From Patescibacteria group bacterium (GTDB lineage Bacteria; Patescibacteriota; Patescibacteriia; XYB2-FULL-38-15), in the NCBI GenBank assembly GCA_041653675.1, contig JBAZEY010000003.1, forward strand, positions 13,284 through 77,283: DNA of 64,000 nt. The letters are read 5' to 3'. Positions 1-52,288 of this stretch are shown piece by piece. A program made the position numbers and the translations under genes. The notes under the pieces were generated by a model. It worked only from the letters and a program-made list of their open reading frames with translations, had not been told where the DNA came from and searched no databases. Numbering within the stretch: the first letter of the stretch is position 1; each line of letters opens with the position of its first letter.

Positions 1-650
1 TAATCACTCTTGTTTTTATATCTCTGGTCTCTTTATGGAGGGCGCCCATTAGTTTAGCCTTGATGAATTCTGAAAGCTATATTAATTGGATGGATTCCTT
101 AAATTTCGGGGGAGAAGAAACTTCTACCTCAACAAATTATAAATTTCAAGATACATTGGGGGAAATTGGAACAGGAAGAATTACAAGCACTAATTACGCC
201 GGATTGATAGGGTTTCGTCAAACTGAGTCAGACCCCAAAATGACTTTTACAATTTCTGGGAATACAATTGATTTTGGTACTTTAACCACAAGTGGTGTTT
301 CTTCTGACAGTATCACGATCACAACTACAACGAACGCAGTTGATGGTTACGTGACAACAATTTACGAAACGGAAAATTTAAAAACTTTGGGAAGTGCTGA
401 CATTGATGATGTGGCGGATGGAACCGTATCTGCCGGTTCAGAAGAATATGGAATTATAACTTCTGGTGCAGCCGGGCAGATGAATGGAGCTGACACAGCT
501 ATCACAACTTCGCCGCAGGCAGTAGCATTATATAGCAGCTGGGTGAACGGAAGCACGGTGACAATTACTTTTAAAGCGGCAATTTCATCAACGACAGGAG
601 CTGGTGCTTATTCACATGCCGTCACGTTGGTTTCCACTGGAAGATTTTAG
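1..650 (+). CDS. Secreted cell-surface protein, 5' end outside window (paralog of 681..1766)
   Basis: The frame stays open from nt 3, so the gene starts upstream of the window. The upstream translation ITLVFISLVSLWRAPISLA looks like a signal peptide. The C-terminal half aligns with 681..1766 (TFTISG...TTSTNAVGGY...AGSEE(Y/F)GI...STG(R/T)F end). It is Thr/Ser/Gly-rich. Confidence 0.6.
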   Translation, partial: ITLVFISLVSLWRAPISLALMNSESYINWMDSLNFGGEETSTSTNYKFQDTLGEIGTGRITSTNYAGLIGFRQTESDPKMTFTISGNTIDFGTLTTSGVSSDSITITTTTNAVDGYVTTIYETENLKTLGSADIDDVADGTVSAGSEEYGIITSGAAGQMNGADTAITTSPQAVALYSSWVNGSTVTITFKAAISSTTGAGAYSHAVTLVSTGRF

Positions 651-680: not shown

Positions 681-1766
681 ATGAAAAGGAAAATTTCAAA
701 CAAAAAAATTATTCAAATCACTGTCGTGAGTATGATTTTGTTTACGGTCTTTCCGCTTTTATCGGTTCATGCCGCGGCTTTGTCGAGCATCACGGACACG
801 CTAACTCGTTTAAAGGCCAGCACAGTTTCAAATCATACTATTAAGTTTGTCCAACTTACTGGCGTGGCTGCTGGACAAAAGGTAAAGGTAACTTTTCCGA
901 CGGGTTTTGCGATGGGTACAGTTGATTATACAGACGTTGATTTGGCTGAAGGCAGTACAAACAATTGTTCCTCGGCCGTCTTTACGGATAAAGTTTTAGC
1001 GGCAGCACCAACGGGCGCTACTTGGGGCGCGGTTGTTGCCGGACAAGTTTTAACTTTTACTTCTGATACGGACACAATTACTGCCGACAGGTGTGTTTTG
1101 GTTGAAGTGGGAACAAATGCGACGAGCGGCGGTGCAGGAGATCAACAGGTAACAAACTCTACTGCGGGAAATGATAAATTGATGGCCATAGCTACAACCA
1201 CGGCAGCTGACGCAGAGATTGATGCGGGCACTTTAGCTCTTTCAATTATTTCTGAAGATCAGGTAACGGTGACTGCCACTGTTAACGCGACTTTTACTTT
1301 TACTATTTCTTCAAGCTCTTGCGCTTTAGGGACGCTTTCAACTTCAAACGTCCAGACTTGTAGCGTAACCTTGACTACGAGTACTAATGCTGTCGGCGGC
1401 TATACCACTACAGTTGTGGGGACAGCTACTGGCGCTGAATTAGTGCACGCCAATTTAACGGACAATATTGATAATGCAACAGGAATTGAGGTTAATGCTG
1501 GGTCAGAAGAATTTGGAATAGGTACGAGTGATTCGGGGGTTGATATTGTAACGGAATCTGATTGCGCCGGAGCTGATGGGGGAGCTGCGGCTGATGCCGA
1601 ATCAATTGACACGGTTGGAGATAATACTGCCGCTTCAGTTGCCTCCGCGGCTGGTCCAGTTTCTGGTGATGCGACGACAGCTTGTTTTGCCGCTTCCATT
1701 GCCGGGTCAACCGTTGCCGGTTCTTACACCGCTACAACGACATTTATTTCTACTGGAACATTTTAA
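681..1766 (+). CDS. Secreted surface protein with an N-terminal SSITDTLTRLKAS domain shared with 2980..5247
   Basis: Signal peptide MKRKISNKKIIQITVVSMILFTVFPLLSVHAAA. The N-terminal domain is homologous to the N-terminus of 2980..5247, and the C-terminal half is homologous to 1..650. The C-terminus GSYTATTTFISTGTF may be WxL-like, which is speculative. Confidence 0.65.
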   Translation: MKRKISNKKIIQITVVSMILFTVFPLLSVHAAALSSITDTLTRLKASTVSNHTIKFVQLTGVAAGQKVKVTFPTGFAMGTVDYTDVDLAEGSTNNCSSAVFTDKVLAAAPTGATWGAVVAGQVLTFTSDTDTITADRCVLVEVGTNATSGGAGDQQVTNSTAGNDKLMAIATTTAADAEIDAGTLALSIISEDQVTVTATVNATFTFTISSSSCALGTLSTSNVQTCSVTLTTSTNAVGGYTTTVVGTATGAELVHANLTDNIDNATGIEVNAGSEEFGIGTSDSGVDIVTESDCAGADGGAAADAESIDTVGDNTAASVASAAGPVSGDATTACFAASIAGSTVAGSYTATTTFISTGTF

Positions 1767-1831: not shown

Positions 1832-2821
1832 ATGAAAAATTTTTTTTTCGTGAGTACGCTCGCCGCTTTAATTTTTGCGCTAGCGCCGATTTCCGCATTT
1901 GCAATAACGGTTTCTCCGCCAATTATAGAATTTGATGCGCGGCCAGGAGACGTTATAGTGGATACTATAAAATTGTATAACGAAACAACAGAGGCCCAAA
2001 CTTTGAACGGGGCGGTGCAAACATTTAAAGCGTTAAATGAAACTGGCGCTCCCTCATTTCTTCCACCCGAGCAGTCGACTGATTTAGCGACTTGGCTAAA
2101 ACTCGATGAGTCCGCGGTTACCCTGAAGGCTGACGAGAGAAAAGATATTTTGTTTAGCATAAATGTTCCTGTTGATGCTGAACCGGGCGGCCATTATGCC
2201 GGAATTCTTTGGACGCCGGCTGGCACAACCACGCTTGAGGGCAGCGGGGTTGGTATCACCGTTAAAACTGGCACTTTGATTTTAGTCAGGGTCGCGGGTG
2301 ATATTACTGAAACAGGCCGGTTAATTAGTTTTACCGCCGACAAAACTTCTTACAATTATTTGCCCGCTAATTTTTCTGTCCGTTTTGAAAATTTAGGAAA
2401 CGTCCATTTGAAACCAGTTGGCACTATTGAAATCAGTAATTTATTGGGAAGAAAAGTTACCTCACTTCCGATCAACGGAGACCTGTCTAATGTCCTTCCA
2501 GATTCAATCAGAAAATTTGACGCGACTTGGCAAAAAACGGAAGAGCCTCTCGGCGCATCCGAATGGCAAAGAGAAAGAGAAAATTTTGCTTGGGGTAAAT
2601 ATACGGCGACTCTTAATTTAGATTACGGAGTGGAGGGGCAGAAAACTACGGCCTCACTTGTGTTTTGGGTTTTTCCGTGGCGCGTAACCCTTTTCTATCT
2701 CGCCATAGCTTTGGTCATAATTATTCTTATAATTATCGGTATCAAAAGTTACAATAAGTGGCTTATTAAAAAGTATAGCCAGGGAAATAGTCCGGTGGAT
2801 GATAAAAAGATTGAAGAATAG
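1832..2821 (+). CDS. Membrane-anchored cell-surface protein with DUF916/DUF3324-like architecture (N-terminal signal, C-terminal TM anchor)
   Basis: RBS GGGGGAAGG. Signal peptide, then ITVSPPIIEFDARPGD, and a C-terminal TM (FWVFPWRVTLFYLAIALVIIILIIIGI) followed by a basic tail. The size and topology match the CscA-type anchor proteins of WxL clusters. Family membership was not verified. Confidence 0.5.
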   Translation: MKNFFFVSTLAALIFALAPISAFAITVSPPIIEFDARPGDVIVDTIKLYNETTEAQTLNGAVQTFKALNETGAPSFLPPEQSTDLATWLKLDESAVTLKADERKDILFSINVPVDAEPGGHYAGILWTPAGTTTLEGSGVGITVKTGTLILVRVAGDITETGRLISFTADKTSYNYLPANFSVRFENLGNVHLKPVGTIEISNLLGRKVTSLPINGDLSNVLPDSIRKFDATWQKTEEPLGASEWQRERENFAWGKYTATLNLDYGVEGQKTTASLVFWVFPWRVTLFYLAIALVIIILIIIGIKSYNKWLIKKYSQGNSPVDDKKIEE

Positions 2822-2979: not shown

Positions 2980-5247
2980 ATGAAAAAATTAATCAAAAGA
3001 AAAGGCGTCGTAATCCTAATCGCGGTTTTTGTTTTGACTAGCCTTTTTACTATATATAATCAATCTGAAGCTAGTTCTCTTTCTTCGGTGAGTGATACTT
3101 TGAGCCGACAAAAGATTAGCGTGGCGGCTAATCACGAATTCGCTTTTACCTTGTCCTCGGGCACGACGGTCGTAGAAGATGAAACTATCACGGTAACATT
3201 TCCATCAACCTTTGCGTCGGGCCTGGATGGGATTGATTGCGGCGACATTGATTTATTAGAGGATTCTGTCCAAGAAAATTTAAATAATGAAGCCGGCGGT
3301 TGCGCGGCCACGGCGACGGAGTGGGGTGCGGCAGTCAGCGCGCGAATTTTGACTCTCACAGCGCCGTCTACGGCGGCAACCTATATGGATGCGAGTTCGG
3401 CCGTAATTATCCGGATTGGGGCAAACACTACGGAAGAAGGAGTGGGCGGAGAACAAATTATAAATCCTGCGAGTATTGGAAGCCACATAATTCATATAGG
3501 CGGAACATTTGGTGTTTCAAGTAATATTGCCATTGCCATTGTGACGGATGATCAAGTCGGTGTTGGCGCGAATATTAGCGCACCGACGGGCGGAGGCGCG
3601 CCTGGAACTGGTGTTACACCGCCGATTGTTTCAAATATAAGAGTTGAAAATATTCTTCAAACATCAGCAACTGTTCTTTGGGATACCAACGAACCCGCGA
3701 CTTCAGTTGTAAATTATGGCTTATCAAATAGTTATGGATCAAGCGCGACGGGTGATGTTGGCGGATTGGTAACGAGCCACAGAGTTGATTTGTCGGGGTT
3801 GACCGCCGATGCGATTTATCACTTTCAAATAGTAACAGCCGACGCGGGAGGAGCCGCGACAACCACGGGCGACGATGTCTTTGAAACTCTTTCCGGTCCG
3901 GATATAACTCCTCCGACGATTTCCGGTATTAGCGCGATCAATATAACACAAGTTGGAGCTACTGTTATTTGGACAACCAACGAACCAGCGAATTCAAAAG
4001 TAGAATACGGCTTAACTGACGCGTATGAGTTGGGAGAAGTAAGTGCCACAGATTTTGTCACGTCGCATAGTTTGGCGGTTTCAGGACTTTTGGAAAATAC
4101 AACTTATCATTTCCGCGTGACCTCGGCCGATGCTTCGGGCAATACGACGGTCTCGGGCGACAATACTTTTGTAACCTTGGCTCCGCCTGACGCGATTCCT
4201 CCGATTATTTCAAATATCAGAGTTATCAATATTACAGAAACATCGGCGACCGTAACTTGGGAAACAGATGAACGAACTACCTCCCGCGTGAGATTTGGGT
4301 TAACGGGTACTTATACCGCGGGTAATATTTTTTCCGCAGATTTGGTCACGACGCATAGCGTTAATTTAAGTTCCTTGACTCGGAGCACGCTCTATCATTT
4401 TGAAGTTTCTTCAGTTGATGGTTATGGCAATACTACGACTTCCGCGGATCAGATTTTTTCTACTTTACCCGACGCGATTCCTCCGGCCAACGTTACGGAT
4501 TTCACGGCAGTTCCAACGGCGGATTTAACAATACTTTTGAACTGGATAAATCCAGCCGATCCGGACTTCGCTGGGGTTTTGATAAAGAGAAGTTTTACGG
4601 ATTATCCGGCAAATCCCACAGAAGGCGAGATAGCCTTTGATGGCATGGCGACTTCATTTGAAGATACTAGTATTACACCCGCTAATTATAATCAGCCAAT
4701 TTATTACACAGCTTTTGCTTATGATGCGGCTGGAAATTTTGCTTCGGGCGCTATGGCAGAAGCGACAATCTCGGCTGAAATTACTTTGGAGGTTAAGGCT
4801 TGGCCAGAAAAAAGATGGCCGCGGAGCGGGAACTGGTCAACGGATGGTACGATTGAAATGCGGGAACCAGCAGATGGGACCGTTGTAGACGAGGGCACGG
4901 TTACAACTTCTGATCTTGGACAAGGCACGATTCGATTTGCTTCAACTCCCGTCGGAAACTATGATATCGGTTTTAAGGGTTTGTCTCATTTGCGAAAAAT
5001 TTTGCGCAATGTCCCGCTTGCGAGCGGCGTAAATTCTGTAGATTTTACTTTAGGAAATATTTTTTATCTTTTAGCCGGAGACGTGCATCGCTCGTCTGAC
5101 AATGTAGTAAACGCTTTGGATATTTCTACTTTGCTTGGTGCTCTTTCTACCAGTAATAATGTTGTTGACTTAAATAATGATACTGGGGTTAATTCTTTGG
5201 ATATAAATATCTTGTTGGCTAACCTAATGAAGGTTGGAGATAATTAA
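2980..5247 (+). CDS. Large secreted protein: shared N-terminal domain, four FN3/PKD-like repeats and a C-terminal dockerin-like module
   Basis: RBS AGGAGG. Signal/TM at the N-terminus. Four repeats of about 97 aa (PPI(V/I)SNIRV...T(V/A)xW(D/T)TNEP...YHF...) at nt 3616-4790. The C-terminus carries two Ca-binding-loop-like segments, DVHRSSDNVVNALDISTLL and a canonical DLNNDTGVNSLDINILL. Confidence 0.7.
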   Translation: MKKLIKRKGVVILIAVFVLTSLFTIYNQSEASSLSSVSDTLSRQKISVAANHEFAFTLSSGTTVVEDETITVTFPSTFASGLDGIDCGDIDLLEDSVQENLNNEAGGCAATATEWGAAVSARILTLTAPSTAATYMDASSAVIIRIGANTTEEGVGGEQIINPASIGSHIIHIGGTFGVSSNIAIAIVTDDQVGVGANISAPTGGGAPGTGVTPPIVSNIRVENILQTSATVLWDTNEPATSVVNYGLSNSYGSSATGDVGGLVTSHRVDLSGLTADAIYHFQIVTADAGGAATTTGDDVFETLSGPDITPPTISGISAINITQVGATVIWTTNEPANSKVEYGLTDAYELGEVSATDFVTSHSLAVSGLLENTTYHFRVTSADASGNTTVSGDNTFVTLAPPDAIPPIISNIRVINITETSATVTWETDERTTSRVRFGLTGTYTAGNIFSADLVTTHSVNLSSLTRSTLYHFEVSSVDGYGNTTTSADQIFSTLPDAIPPANVTDFTAVPTADLTILLNWINPADPDFAGVLIKRSFTDYPANPTEGEIAFDGMATSFEDTSITPANYNQPIYYTAFAYDAAGNFASGAMAEATISAEITLEVKAWPEKRWPRSGNWSTDGTIEMREPADGTVVDEGTVTTSDLGQGTIRFASTPVGNYDIGFKGLSHLRKILRNVPLASGVNSVDFTLGNIFYLLAGDVHRSSDNVVNALDISTLLGALSTSNNVVDLNNDTGVNSLDINILLANLMKVGDN
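3616..4790 (+). repeat. Four tandem FN3-like coding repeats (about 290 nt each)
   Basis: Near-identical nucleotide stretches (ccgccgattgtttcaaatataagagtt at about 3616 and cctccgattatttcaaatatcagagtt at about 4198) and the corresponding protein repeats. Confidence 0.7.
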
Positions 5248-5265
5248 TCATTAGATTTATATATT

Positions 5266-7905
5266 ATGAGGAGGATAATTTACACGATCGCCGCAGTTGG
5301 ATTTAGTTTTTTTCTTGGCCATGCCGTCTTGGCCGCTCGTTTTGAATTATCTCCGGCTACAACAGGATTTATTACTGGCTGTGATTCGGCAGTAAACATT
5401 GAAATTAATACCGAGGGAGAAACTTCTGATGCCGCAAATATTTTGATTCATTATAATCCCGCGCAAATTGAAATTGTTGATTCTAATCCCGCAGCGGGTG
5501 GAGTTCAAATAAGAAATGGCAATGCGTATGAAGCATATGCTGATAATATTGTTTTGCCGGCTGAAGGATTGATTCGCTTAACAGGATTTTCTTTTTTGGA
5601 ACAGCTTACCGGCCAGGCTACTTTGGGCACAATTATTTTCCGTCCGCGAGCGGGCGCGGCCGGTACGGACATCACGATAGAATATGTTGCTGGCAGCACG
5701 ACCGATAGTAATGTTGCTGAATATATAACAAGCGATGATCTTTTGACTGGCGTAACAAACGGTTCTTATACCTTCCGCGGCGGTTCTTGCGTGGCTGATG
5801 TCACGCCGCCGAATGTCACAAATCCCGATCCGACGCCAGATGAACATGATGTGCCGCTTGATTCAAATGTTACTTTTGACATTCACGACAGCCAATCAGG
5901 AGTTGATCTTGATACATTAACCATAAATGTTGACGGCGTCGTTTACACGCGAGACGGCGTAAATAGATTTTCTTTTGTCGGGACACCTGAATCGTATGCG
6001 GTAGCAATTAATCCAGATGCGGATTTTACTCCGGGTGCCACGGTTCTTGTAGAAATCAATGCAGCAGATTTATCAGGGAACGCGATGACGGCTTATCGTT
6101 ATATCTTTAATCAGCCGGCTGGACCTCCACTCATTCCGCCATCTTGTGAGGCTCTTGGTTGCGCCGCTCCCGCCGCTTGCACGGCCGAGCCGGTTCTTCC
6201 GGAAGACATTGCAGAGGAACCGACCGTTCCGGAATCACAAGCCCTAGATCTTGAAGATTTTTCTTTTTACGTGGCTGACGGCACCCTCAAAATTTATCCA
6301 ACAAGAAGCGGAGAACTTGTCACTTTATTAAATTCACCGCTTGTCTTTTCTATTTCTGAAAGTAAATTTCCACGTGAAGTAGAAAGGGTCGCTCTGACAA
6401 TGAACGGATTTTCTTACCTTTTGGGTTATAGTGATCAGGCTGACGCGCGGCAAACAACAATTCAAACGCCGCCCGGAGCTGGTCGCTTGGCATTTTCAAT
6501 TTTGATTGATTATATTGACGGAGCCCACGACAGAGTTGATGGGACGCTCAATCTTTTATCTAAAGGTTTTATTTGGCAAGGAACAACAGCCGGTAAATTA
6601 GCCGGAGCTAAAGTAACTCTTTATGAAGAGTACGCCAGCTTCCGCGTTTGGGATGCTGCTCCTTACCATCAAATCAATCCGCAAACAACTGATTCTTCTG
6701 GCCAATTTTCTTTCTTGGTTCCTCCTGGCCGTTATTATTTGCTTGTTCAAAAAGATGGATACCGCGATCAAGCTACTACGGTTTTTGAAATAGCCAACAA
6801 TGTTGTGAATCCTGGCGTGGAAATTCTTGTCGTTCCGCCGACGTTTGCCGAGGTCTGGGATCCGGCTGCGCCAGTCACGGAAAATATTCAGAATGTCGCC
6901 CAAAATATTGGTGAAAAAACAATTTATGCTACCGAAGTTATTCGTAAAGATGTTTTGGATAATCCCGAAGTAGAAAAAACAAATGAAAGCATTGCCGCGC
7001 CGGCCGTGGCCGCAGTGGCAATCGTAAGTTATGGGACAGCGATTTCTCTCGGTTCACTTTTGCCATTTTTACAATTACTTTTTACTCAACCCATCCTTCT
7101 CCTTTTTCCAAAAAGACGAAAAGGCTGGGGCATTGTTTTTCATTCTTTATCAAAAATGCCGGTGGATCTTGCGATTGTCCGGCTTTATGAAAAAGTTACC
7201 GGCCGACTCGTGCAGACTCGCGTTACCGACAAAGAAGGCCGCTTTGCTTTCTTTGTTCAGCCGGGCCAATATTTTATCAAAGTTGTTAAACCGAATTTTT
7301 CTTTCCCGACGGGATATTTAAAAAATAAAAAAGAGGATGTTAAATATTTAGATCTTTATCACGGCGAAGAGATTACAGTGACGGAAAAAAATACGCTTGT
7401 CACACCGAATATTCCGATTGATCCGGTGGAAGCGGAGCGCGGCAAACCGGATAGGAGAATTGTTCTCGCGCATTTTGGCAGAAAAGTTCAAAATGTTGCC
7501 GCCCTCTTGGGAGTTATCTTCGCTGCAATTTCAGTTTTAATTTCTCCAAAACTTTGGATGGTGGGAATTTTGATTGGCCATTGCTTGCTCTACATACTTT
7601 TCCGAAGGCTCGCTCGCAGCAGAAAACCAAAAAGCTGGGGCATTGTTTATGAAACGAAAACTAAAGCGCCGGTCGGCCTTACCGTGGCAAGAATTTTTGA
7701 AACCGAATATAACAAGTTGCTTGAAACTCAAGTTACCGATGGTCGAGGCCGTTACGCGTTCTTGGTTGGAAATAGTTCTTATTATGTGACTTTCAGCAAA
7801 CCGGGATTTTCGCCAAAACGGACGGAAACAATTGATCTCCGCGGAAGAAAAGAAGGAGCAGCAGTGGGATTGGACGTGGGGTTGGACTTAGAAAAAACAT
7901 CATAA
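5266..7905 (+). CDS. Membrane protein: N-terminal cohesin-like domain, Ig-like (Big) domain, three CarboxypepD_reg-like beta-sandwich domains and 2-3 TM segments
   Basis: Signal peptide. FELSPATTGFITGCDSAVNIEINTEGE...ILIHYNPAQIEIVDSNPAAGGVQIRNG follows the cohesin pattern (f.l.YDp..lE.v.v..G). The stretch VTPPNVTNPDPTPDEHDVPLD...TLTINVDG is Ig-like. CarboxypepD_reg-like domains are KVTLYEEYASFRVWD...SSGQFSFLVPPGRYYLLVQKDGY, and a duplicated unit KRRKGWGIVFHS...AIVRLYEKVTGRLVQTRVTDKEGRFAFFVQPGQYFIKVVKPNFSFP versus SRKPKSWGIVYET...TVARIFETEYNKLLETQVTDGRGRYAFLVGNSSYYVTFSKPGFSP. Each unit is preceded by a TM helix. Confidence 0.6.
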   Translation: MRRIIYTIAAVGFSFFLGHAVLAARFELSPATTGFITGCDSAVNIEINTEGETSDAANILIHYNPAQIEIVDSNPAAGGVQIRNGNAYEAYADNIVLPAEGLIRLTGFSFLEQLTGQATLGTIIFRPRAGAAGTDITIEYVAGSTTDSNVAEYITSDDLLTGVTNGSYTFRGGSCVADVTPPNVTNPDPTPDEHDVPLDSNVTFDIHDSQSGVDLDTLTINVDGVVYTRDGVNRFSFVGTPESYAVAINPDADFTPGATVLVEINAADLSGNAMTAYRYIFNQPAGPPLIPPSCEALGCAAPAACTAEPVLPEDIAEEPTVPESQALDLEDFSFYVADGTLKIYPTRSGELVTLLNSPLVFSISESKFPREVERVALTMNGFSYLLGYSDQADARQTTIQTPPGAGRLAFSILIDYIDGAHDRVDGTLNLLSKGFIWQGTTAGKLAGAKVTLYEEYASFRVWDAAPYHQINPQTTDSSGQFSFLVPPGRYYLLVQKDGYRDQATTVFEIANNVVNPGVEILVVPPTFAEVWDPAAPVTENIQNVAQNIGEKTIYATEVIRKDVLDNPEVEKTNESIAAPAVAAVAIVSYGTAISLGSLLPFLQLLFTQPILLLFPKRRKGWGIVFHSLSKMPVDLAIVRLYEKVTGRLVQTRVTDKEGRFAFFVQPGQYFIKVVKPNFSFPTGYLKNKKEDVKYLDLYHGEEITVTEKNTLVTPNIPIDPVEAERGKPDRRIVLAHFGRKVQNVAALLGVIFAAISVLISPKLWMVGILIGHCLLYILFRRLARSRKPKSWGIVYETKTKAPVGLTVARIFETEYNKLLETQVTDGRGRYAFLVGNSSYYVTFSKPGFSPKRTETIDLRGRKEGAAVGLDVGLDLEKTS

Positions 7906-18736: not shown

Positions 18737-18834
18737 AGAAAATCTAAAGAAGCACGCCTTGACTTTTGAGACATAATATATATGATAACGGCATAGATGG
18801 TCGGCTAGAGGTAGCCGACACAAGGAGGAGAAAG

Positions 18835-20184
18835 ATGAAAAAGGGGAACGGAAGGATCAAGGGGCTCTTTTTGATCGTCATCGCGACGATCGCGATTCTC
18901 GCCTATGCCGCTTGTGGCGACGACGAGCAGTTGTGTCCCAGCGCAGGGGACTGCATGGGACGGGAGTGCGGGCCGGATCCGGTTTGCATGACATCGTGCG
19001 GTGCATGCTCAATCGGAGAAGCATGTTCGGCGGACGGGATATGTATGCCGGACTGCGTGTCCAACTGCGCCGGCCGCGAGTGCGGATGGGACCCGGTCTG
19101 CGGCAACATGTCTTGCGGGACATGCCCGGCGGATCGGCCCAACTGCAATGCCACTACGGGGACTTGTTCGACTGATGGCCCGGATTGTCCGGCAGACCGC
19201 GACTGCGCCGGCCGCGAGTGCGGCCTCGATCCAATCTGCAGCGTTTCCTGCGGGACGTGTTCGGGCGGTGAGACGTGCAGTTCATCAGGAAGATGTGTTT
19301 GCGCTCCCAACTGCTCCGGCCGCGAGTGTGGGCTTGACCCAGTTTGTAGCGTCTCCTGCGGGACGTGTTCAAGCCCAGAGACATGCACTCCATCTGGAAC
19401 GTGCAACTGTACCAGGAACTGCGCCGGCCGTGAATGTGGTCCCGATCCGATTTGTGGCGTTTCCTGCGGCTCGTGTTCAGCTGGCTCATGCACCACGACG
19501 GGCACGTGCACCACGTGTTCATCCGGCGCAACGGAGTCGTGCGCCAATCTTTGCGGTTCGGCTGGCACGCGGAGTTGTAGTGTTTCGGGCGAATGGGGGC
19601 GGTGTCAGGGTGGGACTGCTCTGGTTCCTGTGGCTCTTACGGATGACACCTACATCGACAACGACCCCCCAACTGTCAACCACGGAACCGAAGAATTCGT
19701 GATCATAGGAAAGGGCGTTGCCGCTGACCCACGTCGCCTAGCATTCTTCCGTTTTGATGCGGATTTGGATACGTGGCGGGCGGAGGGCGCCACGTCGATA
19801 ATTCAGGCCGACCTGAGCGTATACGTGAGTGACCGCTTAGGCAGTCAACTTGAACTCTATGGTCTCTCAAATACGACCGGTGGTACTTGCGTGTGGAATG
19901 AAGATACACTGACGTATTACACCCAAGTCACCGCAGGAAGCACGAACTGCTATCCGGACCCGCTTGGCTGGGTCTACCCCGACATTTCGATGATTGTGGA
20001 TTACTCGATGGGCTACGTGGATATCACGGCGTATGTCCAGTGGCTTTGGGACGGCGCGGAGAACGACGGCTTCATGTTGACGAACAATTCGGGGAGTTCC
20101 ACTCCGTTTGCACGGTTGATTATCAACAGCACCGAGAATTCCCGGGATCCACCGAGCGTTTTGGTGAGAGTATCCTGCGAATAG
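18835..20184 (+). CDS. GC-rich secreted/lipoprotein: about 7 Cys-rich repeats (C..GRECG.DP.C..SCG.CS) plus a C-terminal DNRLRE-like domain
   Basis: RBS AAGGAGGAG. Signal LFLIVIATIAILAYAAC. Repeats such as DCAGRECGLDPICSVSCGTCSGGETCSSSGRC. The C-terminal domain carries the DNRLRE-family landmarks (DDTYIDNDPPTVNHG..., RLAFFRFDADL, WNEDTLTYYT, VDITAYVQWLWDGAENDGFML, INSTENSRDPPSVLVRV). Confidence 0.6.
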   Translation: MKKGNGRIKGLFLIVIATIAILAYAACGDDEQLCPSAGDCMGRECGPDPVCMTSCGACSIGEACSADGICMPDCVSNCAGRECGWDPVCGNMSCGTCPADRPNCNATTGTCSTDGPDCPADRDCAGRECGLDPICSVSCGTCSGGETCSSSGRCVCAPNCSGRECGLDPVCSVSCGTCSSPETCTPSGTCNCTRNCAGRECGPDPICGVSCGSCSAGSCTTTGTCTTCSSGATESCANLCGSAGTRSCSVSGEWGRCQGGTALVPVALTDDTYIDNDPPTVNHGTEEFVIIGKGVAADPRRLAFFRFDADLDTWRAEGATSIIQADLSVYVSDRLGSQLELYGLSNTTGGTCVWNEDTLTYYTQVTAGSTNCYPDPLGWVYPDISMIVDYSMGYVDITAYVQWLWDGAENDGFMLTNNSGSSTPFARLIINSTENSRDPPSVLVRVSCE

Positions 20185-22852: not shown

Positions 22853-22926
22853 GGGCCTATAGTATAGTAGTAAAACGCCTCCATGGCATGGAGGAGTCGA
22901 GGGTGCGATTCCCTCTAGGTCCACCA
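22853..22926 (+). tRNA. tRNA-Ala (anticodon GGC), encoded CCA, atypical D-arm
   Basis: Acceptor GGGCCTA/TAGGTCC with G3:U70. Anticodon stem CCTCC/GGAGG with loop ATGGCAT. T-arm GAGGG TGCGATT CCCTC. Discriminator A plus CCA. The D-arm pairs poorly (GTAT...AAAC, and the loop has no GG). Confidence 0.55.
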
Positions 22927-52129: not shown

Positions 52130-52204
52130 TGGGGTGGCTACTGGGAGTTGAACCCAGGCTAGCGGGACCACAACCCGCTGTTCTACCGTTAAACTATAGC
52201 CACC
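52130..52204 (-). tRNA. tRNA-His (GTG) with encoded G-1 and CCA
   Basis: G-1 pairs with C73. Acceptor GTGGCTA/TAGCCAC. Anticodon loop TTGTGGT. T-arm CTGGG TTCAACT CCCAG. Confidence 0.85.
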
Positions 52205-52213
52205 ATTAAATTC

Positions 52214-52288
52214 TGGTGACCCCAGCAGGAATCGAACCTACATCTTCACCTTAGAAGGGTGTTGCTCTGTCCATTGAGCTATGGGGCC
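52214..52288 (-). tRNA. tRNA-Arg (TCT) with encoded CCA
   Basis: Acceptor GGCCCCA/TGGGGTC. D-loop with GG. Anticodon loop CTTCTAA. T-loop TTCGATT. Confidence 0.8.

Follow-up and report, generated by a model that had tools for sequence, protein, structure and literature searches.

What is a dockerin-type module doing at the end of one gene, and a cohesin-fold domain at the start of the next, in a Patescibacteria group bacterium? The question is raised by a 64,000-nucleotide stretch of contig JBAZEY010000003.1 (GenBank assembly GCA_041653675.1, positions 13,284 to 77,283 of the forward strand), the whole of which is called here the window. The first gene, P1 (2980..5247, 755 aa), and the second, P2 (5266..7905, 879 aa), lie on one strand and in one frame, and 18 nt separate the TAA stop of P1 from the start of P2. 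One cohesin and one dockerin are present within the 64-kb window, and they are situated at the facing ends of these two genes. On genomic evidence it is very likely that the P1 dockerin and the P2 cohesin bind each other. Sequence comparison of the pair and its neighbours led to a combined reading which we consider probable, namely that P1 and P2 form a two-piece anchor, held by a cohesin-dockerin joint, which ends a Pam-type pilus.

The C-terminal end of P1 was described in an initial annotation, made from the sequence alone, as dockerin-like with a canonical second repeat and a degenerate first one. The quoted peptides are present in the protein, and Pfam Dockerin_1 matched 21 of 21 P1-family C-termini (best E 4.6e-6). 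The dockerin pattern is composed of two tandem segments of about 22 residues, each possessing a 12-residue EF-hand-like Ca loop (D/N at positions 1, 3, 5, 9 and 12) followed by a helix. In the second repeat of P1 (DLNNDTGVNSLD followed by INILLANL) every canonical Ca-ligand position is present (D1, N3, D5, N9 and D12). The first repeat (DVHRSSDNVVNALD) possesses a 2-residue insertion in the loop and a His at position 3. Comparison of the first loop across 25 loci revealed a gradient from a fully canonical form (GDFNNDGLVNSIDLS) to the inserted form of P1, and because of this gradient the first repeat is taken as a derived dockerin variant. Pfam gathering thresholds are 22.9 bits for Dockerin_1 (PF00404) and 24.1 bits for Cohesin (PF00963). 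Full-length P1 scored 14.7 bits with Dockerin_1, and its last 64 aa alone scored 18.4 bits (E 0.0025), this being the only Pfam match at E<=10. The P1 orthologue P0071 clears the threshold with 25.3 bits and other homologues reach 33.7-37.3 bits. The dockerin threshold is passed at the level of the family, not by the window sequence alone.

An Ig-like beta-sandwich was found directly N-terminal to the dockerin. AlphaFold2 (AF2) predicted a confident beta-sandwich for residues 597-692, with means of 10-residue blocks mostly at 71-94 and two blocks at 60. In Foldseek it matched generic Ig, transthyretin and CnaB folds along with the X modules of 4wi0_B, 4u3s_B, 5g5d_B and 2b59_B. The last 159 residues of P1 are strongly conserved across its orthologues (alignment A5), and after the beta-sandwich they follow the pattern GD(V/T)HRSxDNxVN(A/S)LD...DLNxDTxVNSLDINILLANL. 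The A5 profile, searched against PDB, matched the X module-dockerin (XDoc) dyads of type II complexes, and the match to 5k39_B/5m0y (E 9.6e-6) spans both sub-modules. Further matches were 2b59_B, 4wi0_B, 3kcp_A, 5g5d_B and plain type I dockerins. Aligned by hhalign, A5 and the XDoc of P0049, which passes the Pfam threshold, matched over 143 columns with 97.1% probability. The X module invariably accompanies the dockerin in 24 loci. The P1 tail has the organization of a type II XDoc dyad, in which an Ig-like X module is fused before the dockerin and the two are conserved together.

The start of P2 after the signal peptide had been called cohesin-like, and structure prediction bears this out. 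A full-length Pfam scan of P2 gave no Cohesin match, while residues 24-179 alone scored 18.9-19.0 bits (E 0.0019), again the only Pfam match at E<=10. Using an alignment of 25 P2 N-domains (A1) as input, AF2 produced an all-beta model with a predicted local distance difference test (pLDDT) score of 84.9 and a predicted template modelling (pTM) score of 0.83. The top 50 Foldseek matches of the model in PDB are without exception cohesins, with types I, II and III and non-cellulosomal ones among them (E 9e-7 to 3e-4, probability 1.00, TMq up to 0.68). The model thus confirms the cohesin fold, a nine-stranded flattened beta-sandwich of jelly-roll topology, for the P2 N-domain. Pfam Cohesin matched 10 of the 25 N-domains (best E 1.3e-5) and no other family recurs among them; its threshold is cleared by the homologues P0049 (32.8 bits) and a 637-aa protein of locus L028 (25.1 bits). 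Pfam scans of both modules had been proposed as the test of the initial annotation, with scores below threshold for both to count as refutation. The window modules indeed fall below 22.9 and 24.1 bits with 18.4 and 18.9 bits, and their homologues P0071, P0049 and the L028 protein pass. A word-index search with the isolated cohesin domain gave no matches and full-length P2 was needed as query. The cohesin-family profile found only gp120 noise (E about 0.15) among PDB sequences, and fold comparison was used instead.

In an exhaustive profile search the cohesin family proved to be very large: 2,680 cluster representatives were matched at E<=1e-3, and 1,202 at the stricter E<=1e-10. The domain is nearly always situated at residues about 25-190, straight after the signal peptide. 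Metagenome bins of Patescibacteria and Falkowbacteria contain about 35 orthologues of full-length P2 (41-97% identity). More distant relatives have only the N-terminal part in common with P2, and in distant homologues the Big_5 domain accompanies the cohesin domain. Two further features of the cohesin domain were observed. In mature numbering, Cys16 is invariant and Cys152 nearly so, and the two may be linked as a disulfide staple. Strands 8 and 9 are connected by a near-invariant, family-specific loop, G-S-T-x-DSNIAE-x-TSDDLL, with AF2 pLDDT below 50, which could contact a metal or the partner.

The rest of P2 is its membrane-anchor half. Residues 320-879 contain a middle domain and three CarboxypepD_reg-type domains (Pfam E 6.1e-18, 3 stretches, the best at nt 6598-6795). 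Two hydrophobic stretches of about 40 aa each were observed by hydropathy at residues 575-614 (nt 6988-7107) and 740-783 (nt 7483-7614), which supports the earlier statement that P2 is membrane-embedded through its later segments. The region 6988-7902 (residues 575-879) holds a unit present twice, made of the hydrophobic stretch, a basic K/R-x-x-K-x-WG(I/L)V motif (KxxKxWG) and a CarboxypepD_reg domain. The transthyretin-like domains of this doubled unit may lie on the cytoplasmic side, the topology beyond the first hydrophobic region being uncertain.

The partnership of the two modules was examined in other genomes. GTDB was scanned with the cohesin alignment as query, taking one genome per species. 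The scan returned 29 loci spread over Falkowbacteria, Dojkabacteria/WS6, Saccharibacteria, Peregrinibacteria, Peribacteria, Gracilibacteria and Yanofskybacteria, 27 of them with enough flanking sequence. An XDoc-ending gene adjoins the cohesin-first gene in 24 of these 27 evaluable loci of the candidate phyla radiation (CPR), co-directional and immediately upstream in 23 and divergent in one. These 24 pairs span Falkowbacteria, Dojkabacteria, Saccharibacteria, Peregrinibacteria, Gracilibacteria and Yanofskybacteria, so that the genetic linkage claimed for the window holds far beyond it. In all XDoc partner proteins the dockerin is situated 0-9 residues from the C-terminus, and the rest of the protein ranges from a bare transmembrane (TM) anchor (about 210-250 aa) to more than 1,900 aa. 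The stop-to-start spacer of 24 homologous pairs has a median of 25.5 nt, with overlap in 7 of the 24. A single read-through or recoded gene, as the common frame and single stop of P1 and P2 might suggest, was rejected: the stop is TAA, P2 possesses its own conserved Met and signal peptide, and spacers or overlaps differ among orthologues.

Some loci depart from the simple pair. The divergent case is L010:3923-6693, where the XDoc gene faces away from the cohesin gene. The exceptions to adjacency are L024, L025 and L029, each with two tandem short cohesin-only open reading frames (ORFs) and no dockerin within 6 kb. Daisy chains were found in Saccharibacteria-type bins (L028:3187-6936 and L033:179-3096). 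The L028 chain starts with a dockerin protein; next comes a protein that has a cohesin at its head and an XDoc at its tail, and after it a cohesin-headed protein. This order suggests multi-link non-covalent assemblies. Several metagenome-assembled genomes (MAGs) with the CPR-type module, among those of L005, L009, L024, L025, L029, L031 and L033, are titled 'uncultured Gammaproteobacteria' or 'Pseudomonadales', and these labels are probably wrong. Some of their contigs are 0.7-1.0 Mb long (OZ246416.1, OZ246408.1 and those holding L024 and L029).

A second line of evidence came from natural fusions. BLASTP identified 16 proteins of 1,051-1,322 aa in which P1 residues 1 to about 596 are joined to P2 residues about 320 to 879. 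Exactly the XDoc dyad together with the signal peptide, cohesin and Big_5 domain is absent from them, and a short linker is found in place. One of them, P0089, occupies the same operon slot as the window pair, and the TPR, YchF and methyltransferase genes found downstream in the window come after it too. A rough midpoint-rooted neighbour-joining (NJ) tree was constructed from 52 sequences of the shared C-terminal half. Fused forms were placed on the deepest branches and also as sister to the clade of the window, and the split forms fell into at least three groups. As split and fused forms interleave in this tree, linker and cassette appear to have replaced each other more than once. Because the fusions skip exactly the modules in question, they argue strongly that the cohesin-dockerin pair joins P1 to P2. 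The tethering of an FN3-rich protein to the cell surface, proposed in the initial annotation, gains from the conserved adjacency and from these fusions, the binding itself being deduced from them.

What the joint would hold was approached through the genes before it and the N-terminal parts of P1. In the related locus L001 the conserved gene order is tip pilin, pilin, chaperone-like protein, P1 and P2. NCBIfam models of the Pam system (NF058579 / NF058581) were used for comparison. The product of 3..650 matched CPR_pilus_PamT (E 1.1e-17, 64 bits against an equivalog cut-off of 240) and CPR_Pam_pilin_C (E 2.2e-9); its syntenic gene in L001 encodes 227 aa. The pilin of 681..1766, whose architecture is as described for Pam pilins (bioRxiv 10.64898/2026.03.03.709456), matched CPR_Pam_pilin_C over residues 210-361 (E 9e-12, 45.3 bits against a cut-off of 55). 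As both score under the NCBIfam cut-offs, the PamT-like and pilin genes are read as distant relatives of the described Pam system. The product of 1832..2821 possesses an N-terminal signal and, by hydropathy, a TM segment at residues 276-312, along with weak WxLIP_PGBD/Fn3-like Pfam matches. The gene position is conserved in L001 and L003. From architecture and position it is probably a PamC/D-like chaperone.

P1 itself begins like a pilin. Its residues 1-201 aligned with residues 1-203 of the adjacent pilin (BLASTP E 2e-21, 31% identity), and the alignment reaches up to the start of the pilin acceptor domain. Scanning of P1 with CPR_Pam_pilin_C gave no match, and no acceptor C-domain follows the N-domain. 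In the stalk Pfam detected three FN3 domains, and residues 505-595 are read as a fourth FN3-like domain from the sequence pattern, without a hidden Markov model (HMM) match. About 30 full-length orthologues of P1 were found. The X module, the Pam-pilin-like N-domain of P1 and the Pam-type operon context had all been missed in the initial annotation. In the Pam model, the inter-domain linker strand of a new subunit inserts into the C-terminal domain of the previous one, and in Ca. Mycosynbacter amalyticus the filament is proposed to be ended and tethered by PamR, an RbmA-like protein that contains FN3 domains and a TM helix (bioRxiv 10.64898/2026.03.03.709456). P1 fits a terminator role because it has the N-domain and linker, has no acceptor and would be tied to the membrane. 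A role as pilus-base anchor is suggested because the two genes come after a PamT-like tip pilin, a pilin and a membrane-anchored chaperone-like protein. The pilus-terminator role of P1 and P2 taken on its own stands at about an even chance.

The proposed mechanism would be as follows. P1 and P2 would be two halves of one surface-anchoring protein held together non-covalently by the cohesin-dockerin joint. P1 would be secreted, with its pilin-like N-domain and linker strand at one end, the FN3 stalk in the middle and the XDoc dyad at the extreme C-terminus. P2 would be a membrane protein with the cohesin as its first mature domain, presumably facing outside the cell. The XDoc dyad of P1 would plug into the P2 cohesin and tie P1 to the membrane, and this joint is most likely Ca-dependent, chiefly through the canonical second repeat. 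In principle the last pilin could receive a strand from P1, which itself cannot accept one. It would thereby cap the proximal end of the pilus, and the pair would terminate the Pam-type pilus and anchor its base. The terminator job proposed for PamR in Ca. Mycosynbacter would be done here by two chains instead of one.

Several observations weigh against this two-piece pilus anchor. Both modules of the window score under the Pfam gathering thresholds, the first Ca loop of the P1 dockerin is non-canonical, and AF2 gave low confidence for dockerin residues 693-755 (pLDDT 32-45). The Pam matches do not reach the NCBIfam cut-offs, and the chaperone owes its assignment to architecture alone. The XDoc proteins of most other lineages are small and have no pilin domain, and at least one XDoc-cohesin pair, in WS6, lies outside any Pam operon; the pilus link is therefore limited to this clade. 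The argument for partnership is a genomic one, and the census of modules is confined to the 64-kb window.

The alternative that best withstands the data accepts the joint between P1 and P2 and takes the complex for an envelope-spanning stalk or adhesin in its own right, serving for instance in host contact and sharing only its operon or neighbourhood with the Pam genes and the giant fibre protein encoded after P2. It is in keeping with the sub-threshold Pam-family matches and with the spread of XDoc-cohesin pairs, which are found across many lineages outside Pam operons and there include XDoc proteins that are small and have no pilin domain, and the pilin-like domain of P1 could serve some other function. 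We nevertheless consider it unlikely, as the first 200 aa of P1 align with the N-domain of the adjacent pilin up to the start of the acceptor, the order of the five genes is conserved, and the published Pam model requires an FN3-containing, membrane-tethered terminator.

The adjacency and fusion data bear on another alternative, in which both modules are functional but not exclusive partners. The P2 cohesin would then be a general docking site, the P1 dockerin might use other cohesins, and adjacency would reflect co-regulation. The size of the cohesin family, the tandem cohesin-only genes and the chains of dockerin, cohesin-XDoc and cohesin proteins are compatible with this reading, and the genome was viewed through 64 kb only. 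This is nonetheless improbable, since the window holds a single module of each kind, the adjacency is near-universal and often translationally coupled, and the fusions put a plain linker in place of exactly this pair. A last alternative is that the resemblance is vestigial: the tail would serve only to bind Ca or as a structural motif, the cohesin-like domain would be an Ig or jelly-roll spacer of a generic kind, and the two would not interact. The sub-threshold scores, the degenerate first loop and the low-confidence dockerin model would agree with this. It is highly improbable all the same, since the dockerin motif and the cohesin domain stay strongly conserved even where overall identity has fallen to about 25-30%, cohesins alone appear among the fold matches, the two termini invariably face each other in neighbouring genes, and the fusions drop both modules together.

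The closest known analogue of the proposed two-piece anchor is the type II cohesin/XDoc joint of clostridial cellulosomes, as between the C. thermocellum CipA XDoc and the SdbA/OlpB cohesins (PDB 2b59, 5k39, 5m0y and 4wi0). In both cases an Ig-like X module is situated just before a C-terminal dockerin, the partner cohesin is carried by a cell-bound protein, and the joint attaches, or in P1/P2 would attach, a structural protein to the cell surface without recruiting enzymes. The extended first Ca loop is also found in 5k39_B. The differences lie in the partners and the host. P2 is predicted to be an integral membrane protein with CarboxypepD_reg domains, whereas the clostridial carriers are SLH- or sortase-anchored. 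The cargo is a pilin-like/FN3 stalk and not a scaffoldin, the partners are encoded back to back, the host is a CPR bacterium without cellulolytic apparatus, and sequence identity to the solved dyads is low.

With PamR, compared by its description, P1/P2 would share the FN3 domains, the Pam operon, an N-terminal donor element and, at the opposite end, a membrane anchor. PamR is described as a single chain of small size, made up of an N-terminal strand, two FN3 domains and one TM helix, whereas P1/P2 are far larger, begin with a full pilin-like N-domain and are split into two polypeptides. Non-cellulosomal cohesin and dockerin modules have been reported across the three domains of life and, like the present modules, occur on surface proteins of organisms that do not degrade cellulose. 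Two of them, cohesin 2xdh from A. fulgidus and the cohesin-like module 2jh2 from C. perfringens, were matched by the P2 domain in Foldseek. Unlike in most of these, a partner is indicated here by adjacency and fusions and a concrete anchoring role is proposed.

The suggestion of the initial annotation that the pair forms a minimal cellulosome-like scaffold does not hold. A scaffoldin would have multiple cohesins and dockerin-bearing enzymes, and the 64 kb contain one cohesin and one dockerin, with no enzyme-borne dockerin. P1 contains only pilin-like, FN3 and Ig-like domains, and no carbohydrate-active domain is present in P1 or P2. None of the genes of the window resembling carbohydrate-active enzymes carries a dockerin, the CBM96 protein of 18766..20184 included.

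P2 is followed by a conserved neighbour, the giant fibre-like protein (Table 1). It possesses dozens of repeats like NYGGYF(T/S)AxGxxGxGVYG and ends in a PSEPAP/PTEPAP tail. It has no solid Pfam match, only a weak one to the fibre family Bdello_MAT_N (E 2e-4). Large ORFs are found in the same position in L001 (3,098 aa) and L003 (1,082 aa). A 'tail fibre-like protein' is a conserved neighbour in the Pam paper (bioRxiv 10.64898/2026.03.03.709456), and the giant protein is probably this protein reported beside Pam operons. In L001 a DUF559/MTES_1575 endonuclease-like gene (L001:12686-13033) lies between the P2 orthologue and the giant fibre gene, and genes for 23S_rRNA_IVP-type proteins occur near the locus in L001 and L003.

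The other genes of the window are ordinary housekeeping genes (YchF, class II aminoacyl-tRNA synthetase, EF-P, RecA, FtsK, UvrC and UvrA). Rfam matched three tRNA genes only, at 22853-22923 (+), 52133-52203 (-) and 52217-52288 (-), and nothing in the P1/P2 region. The segment 18000-20200 has a GC content of 0.58 compared with about 0.43 in its flanks, possesses long overlapping ORFs on both strands and may be horizontally acquired. The CBM96/DNRLRE-domain protein mentioned above (472 aa) is encoded in this GC-rich island.

Table 1. Positions of the pilus-type genes and of the parts of P1 and P2 in the window.
Feature	Position	Strand	Details
PamT-like tip pilin, acceptor Ig-like domain only	3..650	+	probably cut at 5' end by window edge
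Pam-type pilin	681..1766	+	signal peptide, N-terminal beta-sandwich, linker, C-terminal Ig-like acceptor domain
Probable PamC/D-like chaperone	1832..2821	+	signal peptide, Ig-like region, C-terminal TM helix
P1 signal peptide, Pam-pilin-like N-domain and linker-like strand	2980..3582	+	residues 1-201
P1 stalk, FN3 domains	3622..4767	+	Pfam fn3 (3 stretches, E 2.1e-17), Pur_ac_phosph_N (3 stretches, E 4.2e-20), fn3_2
P1 X-module-like Ig beta-sandwich	4768..5055	+	residues 597-692; invariant PEKRWPR and SHLRK motifs
P1 dockerin-type module	5056..5244	+	residues 693-755; Pfam Dockerin_1, sole match of isolated module
Dockerin repeat 1, DVHRSSDNVVNALDISTLL	5080-5136	+	residues 701-719; loop with 2-residue insertion
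Dockerin repeat 2, DLNNDTGVNSLDINILLANL	5167-5226	+	residues 730-749; canonical
Intergenic spacer	5248..5265	+	18 nt, from dockerin stop codon to cohesin gene start codon; from sequence
P2 signal peptide	5266..5334	+	residues 1-23; by hydropathy; hydrophobic N-terminus kept among orthologues
P2 cohesin-fold domain	5335..5793	+	residues 24-176, 153 aa, all-beta; contains ILIHYNPAQIEIVDSNPAAGG
P2 Big_5 bacterial Ig-like domain	5797..6099	+	residues 178-278, then Pro-rich linker; Pfam E 9.4e-4, below threshold
P2 membrane-anchor half	6223..7902	+	residues 320-879; part in common with single-chain fusions (BLASTP to 16 fusion proteins)
Giant fibre-like protein, 2,412 aa	7992..15230	+	N-terminal TM/signal; Gly/Tyr-rich repeats; Pro-rich tail; conserved neighbour of the pair

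The modules described here are known. What appears to be undescribed is that they recur as a pair of linked genes which takes the place of a covalent linker in the pilus or surface anchor of CPR bacteria. Searches of the literature consulted found no report of a cohesin-dockerin pair in CPR pili. The Pam paper mentions neither cohesin nor dockerin (bioRxiv 10.64898/2026.03.03.709456), and the only related item found was a dockerin-domain protein, essential in the Saccharibacterium Southlakia (PMC10633639).

It is only in cellulosomes that cohesin-dockerin pairs are well understood, and the non-cellulosomal copies are almost without assigned partners or roles. The present locus names a specific, probable partner pair, and the single-chain fusions serve as a natural control for what the pair replaces. 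It would also place the pair in the newly described Pam pilus system, the anchoring of which has so far only been modelled. A wider view can be put forward tentatively, at somewhat less than an even chance. The two-gene cassette, an XDoc tail followed by a signal peptide-cohesin head, may be a portable non-covalent joint for envelope structures, widespread in CPR bacteria, which in this clade has been repeatedly swapped with a plain linker inside a Pam-type pilus anchor and which daisy chains would in some genomes extend into modular surface assemblies. About a thousand adjacent natural cohesin/dockerin pairs are at hand, which could be analysed for co-evolution and mined for orthogonal connectors between proteins.

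XDoc-cohesin bonds, a class known from cellulosomes, rank with the strongest non-covalent links between proteins in mechanical terms, and such a bond would suit the anchor of a load-bearing filament. If the proposed reading is true, the pilus of an episymbiont hangs on a cohesin-XDoc bond. This opens the question of how ultra-small episymbionts fasten their host-contact filaments to the membrane without an outer-membrane usher or a sortase.

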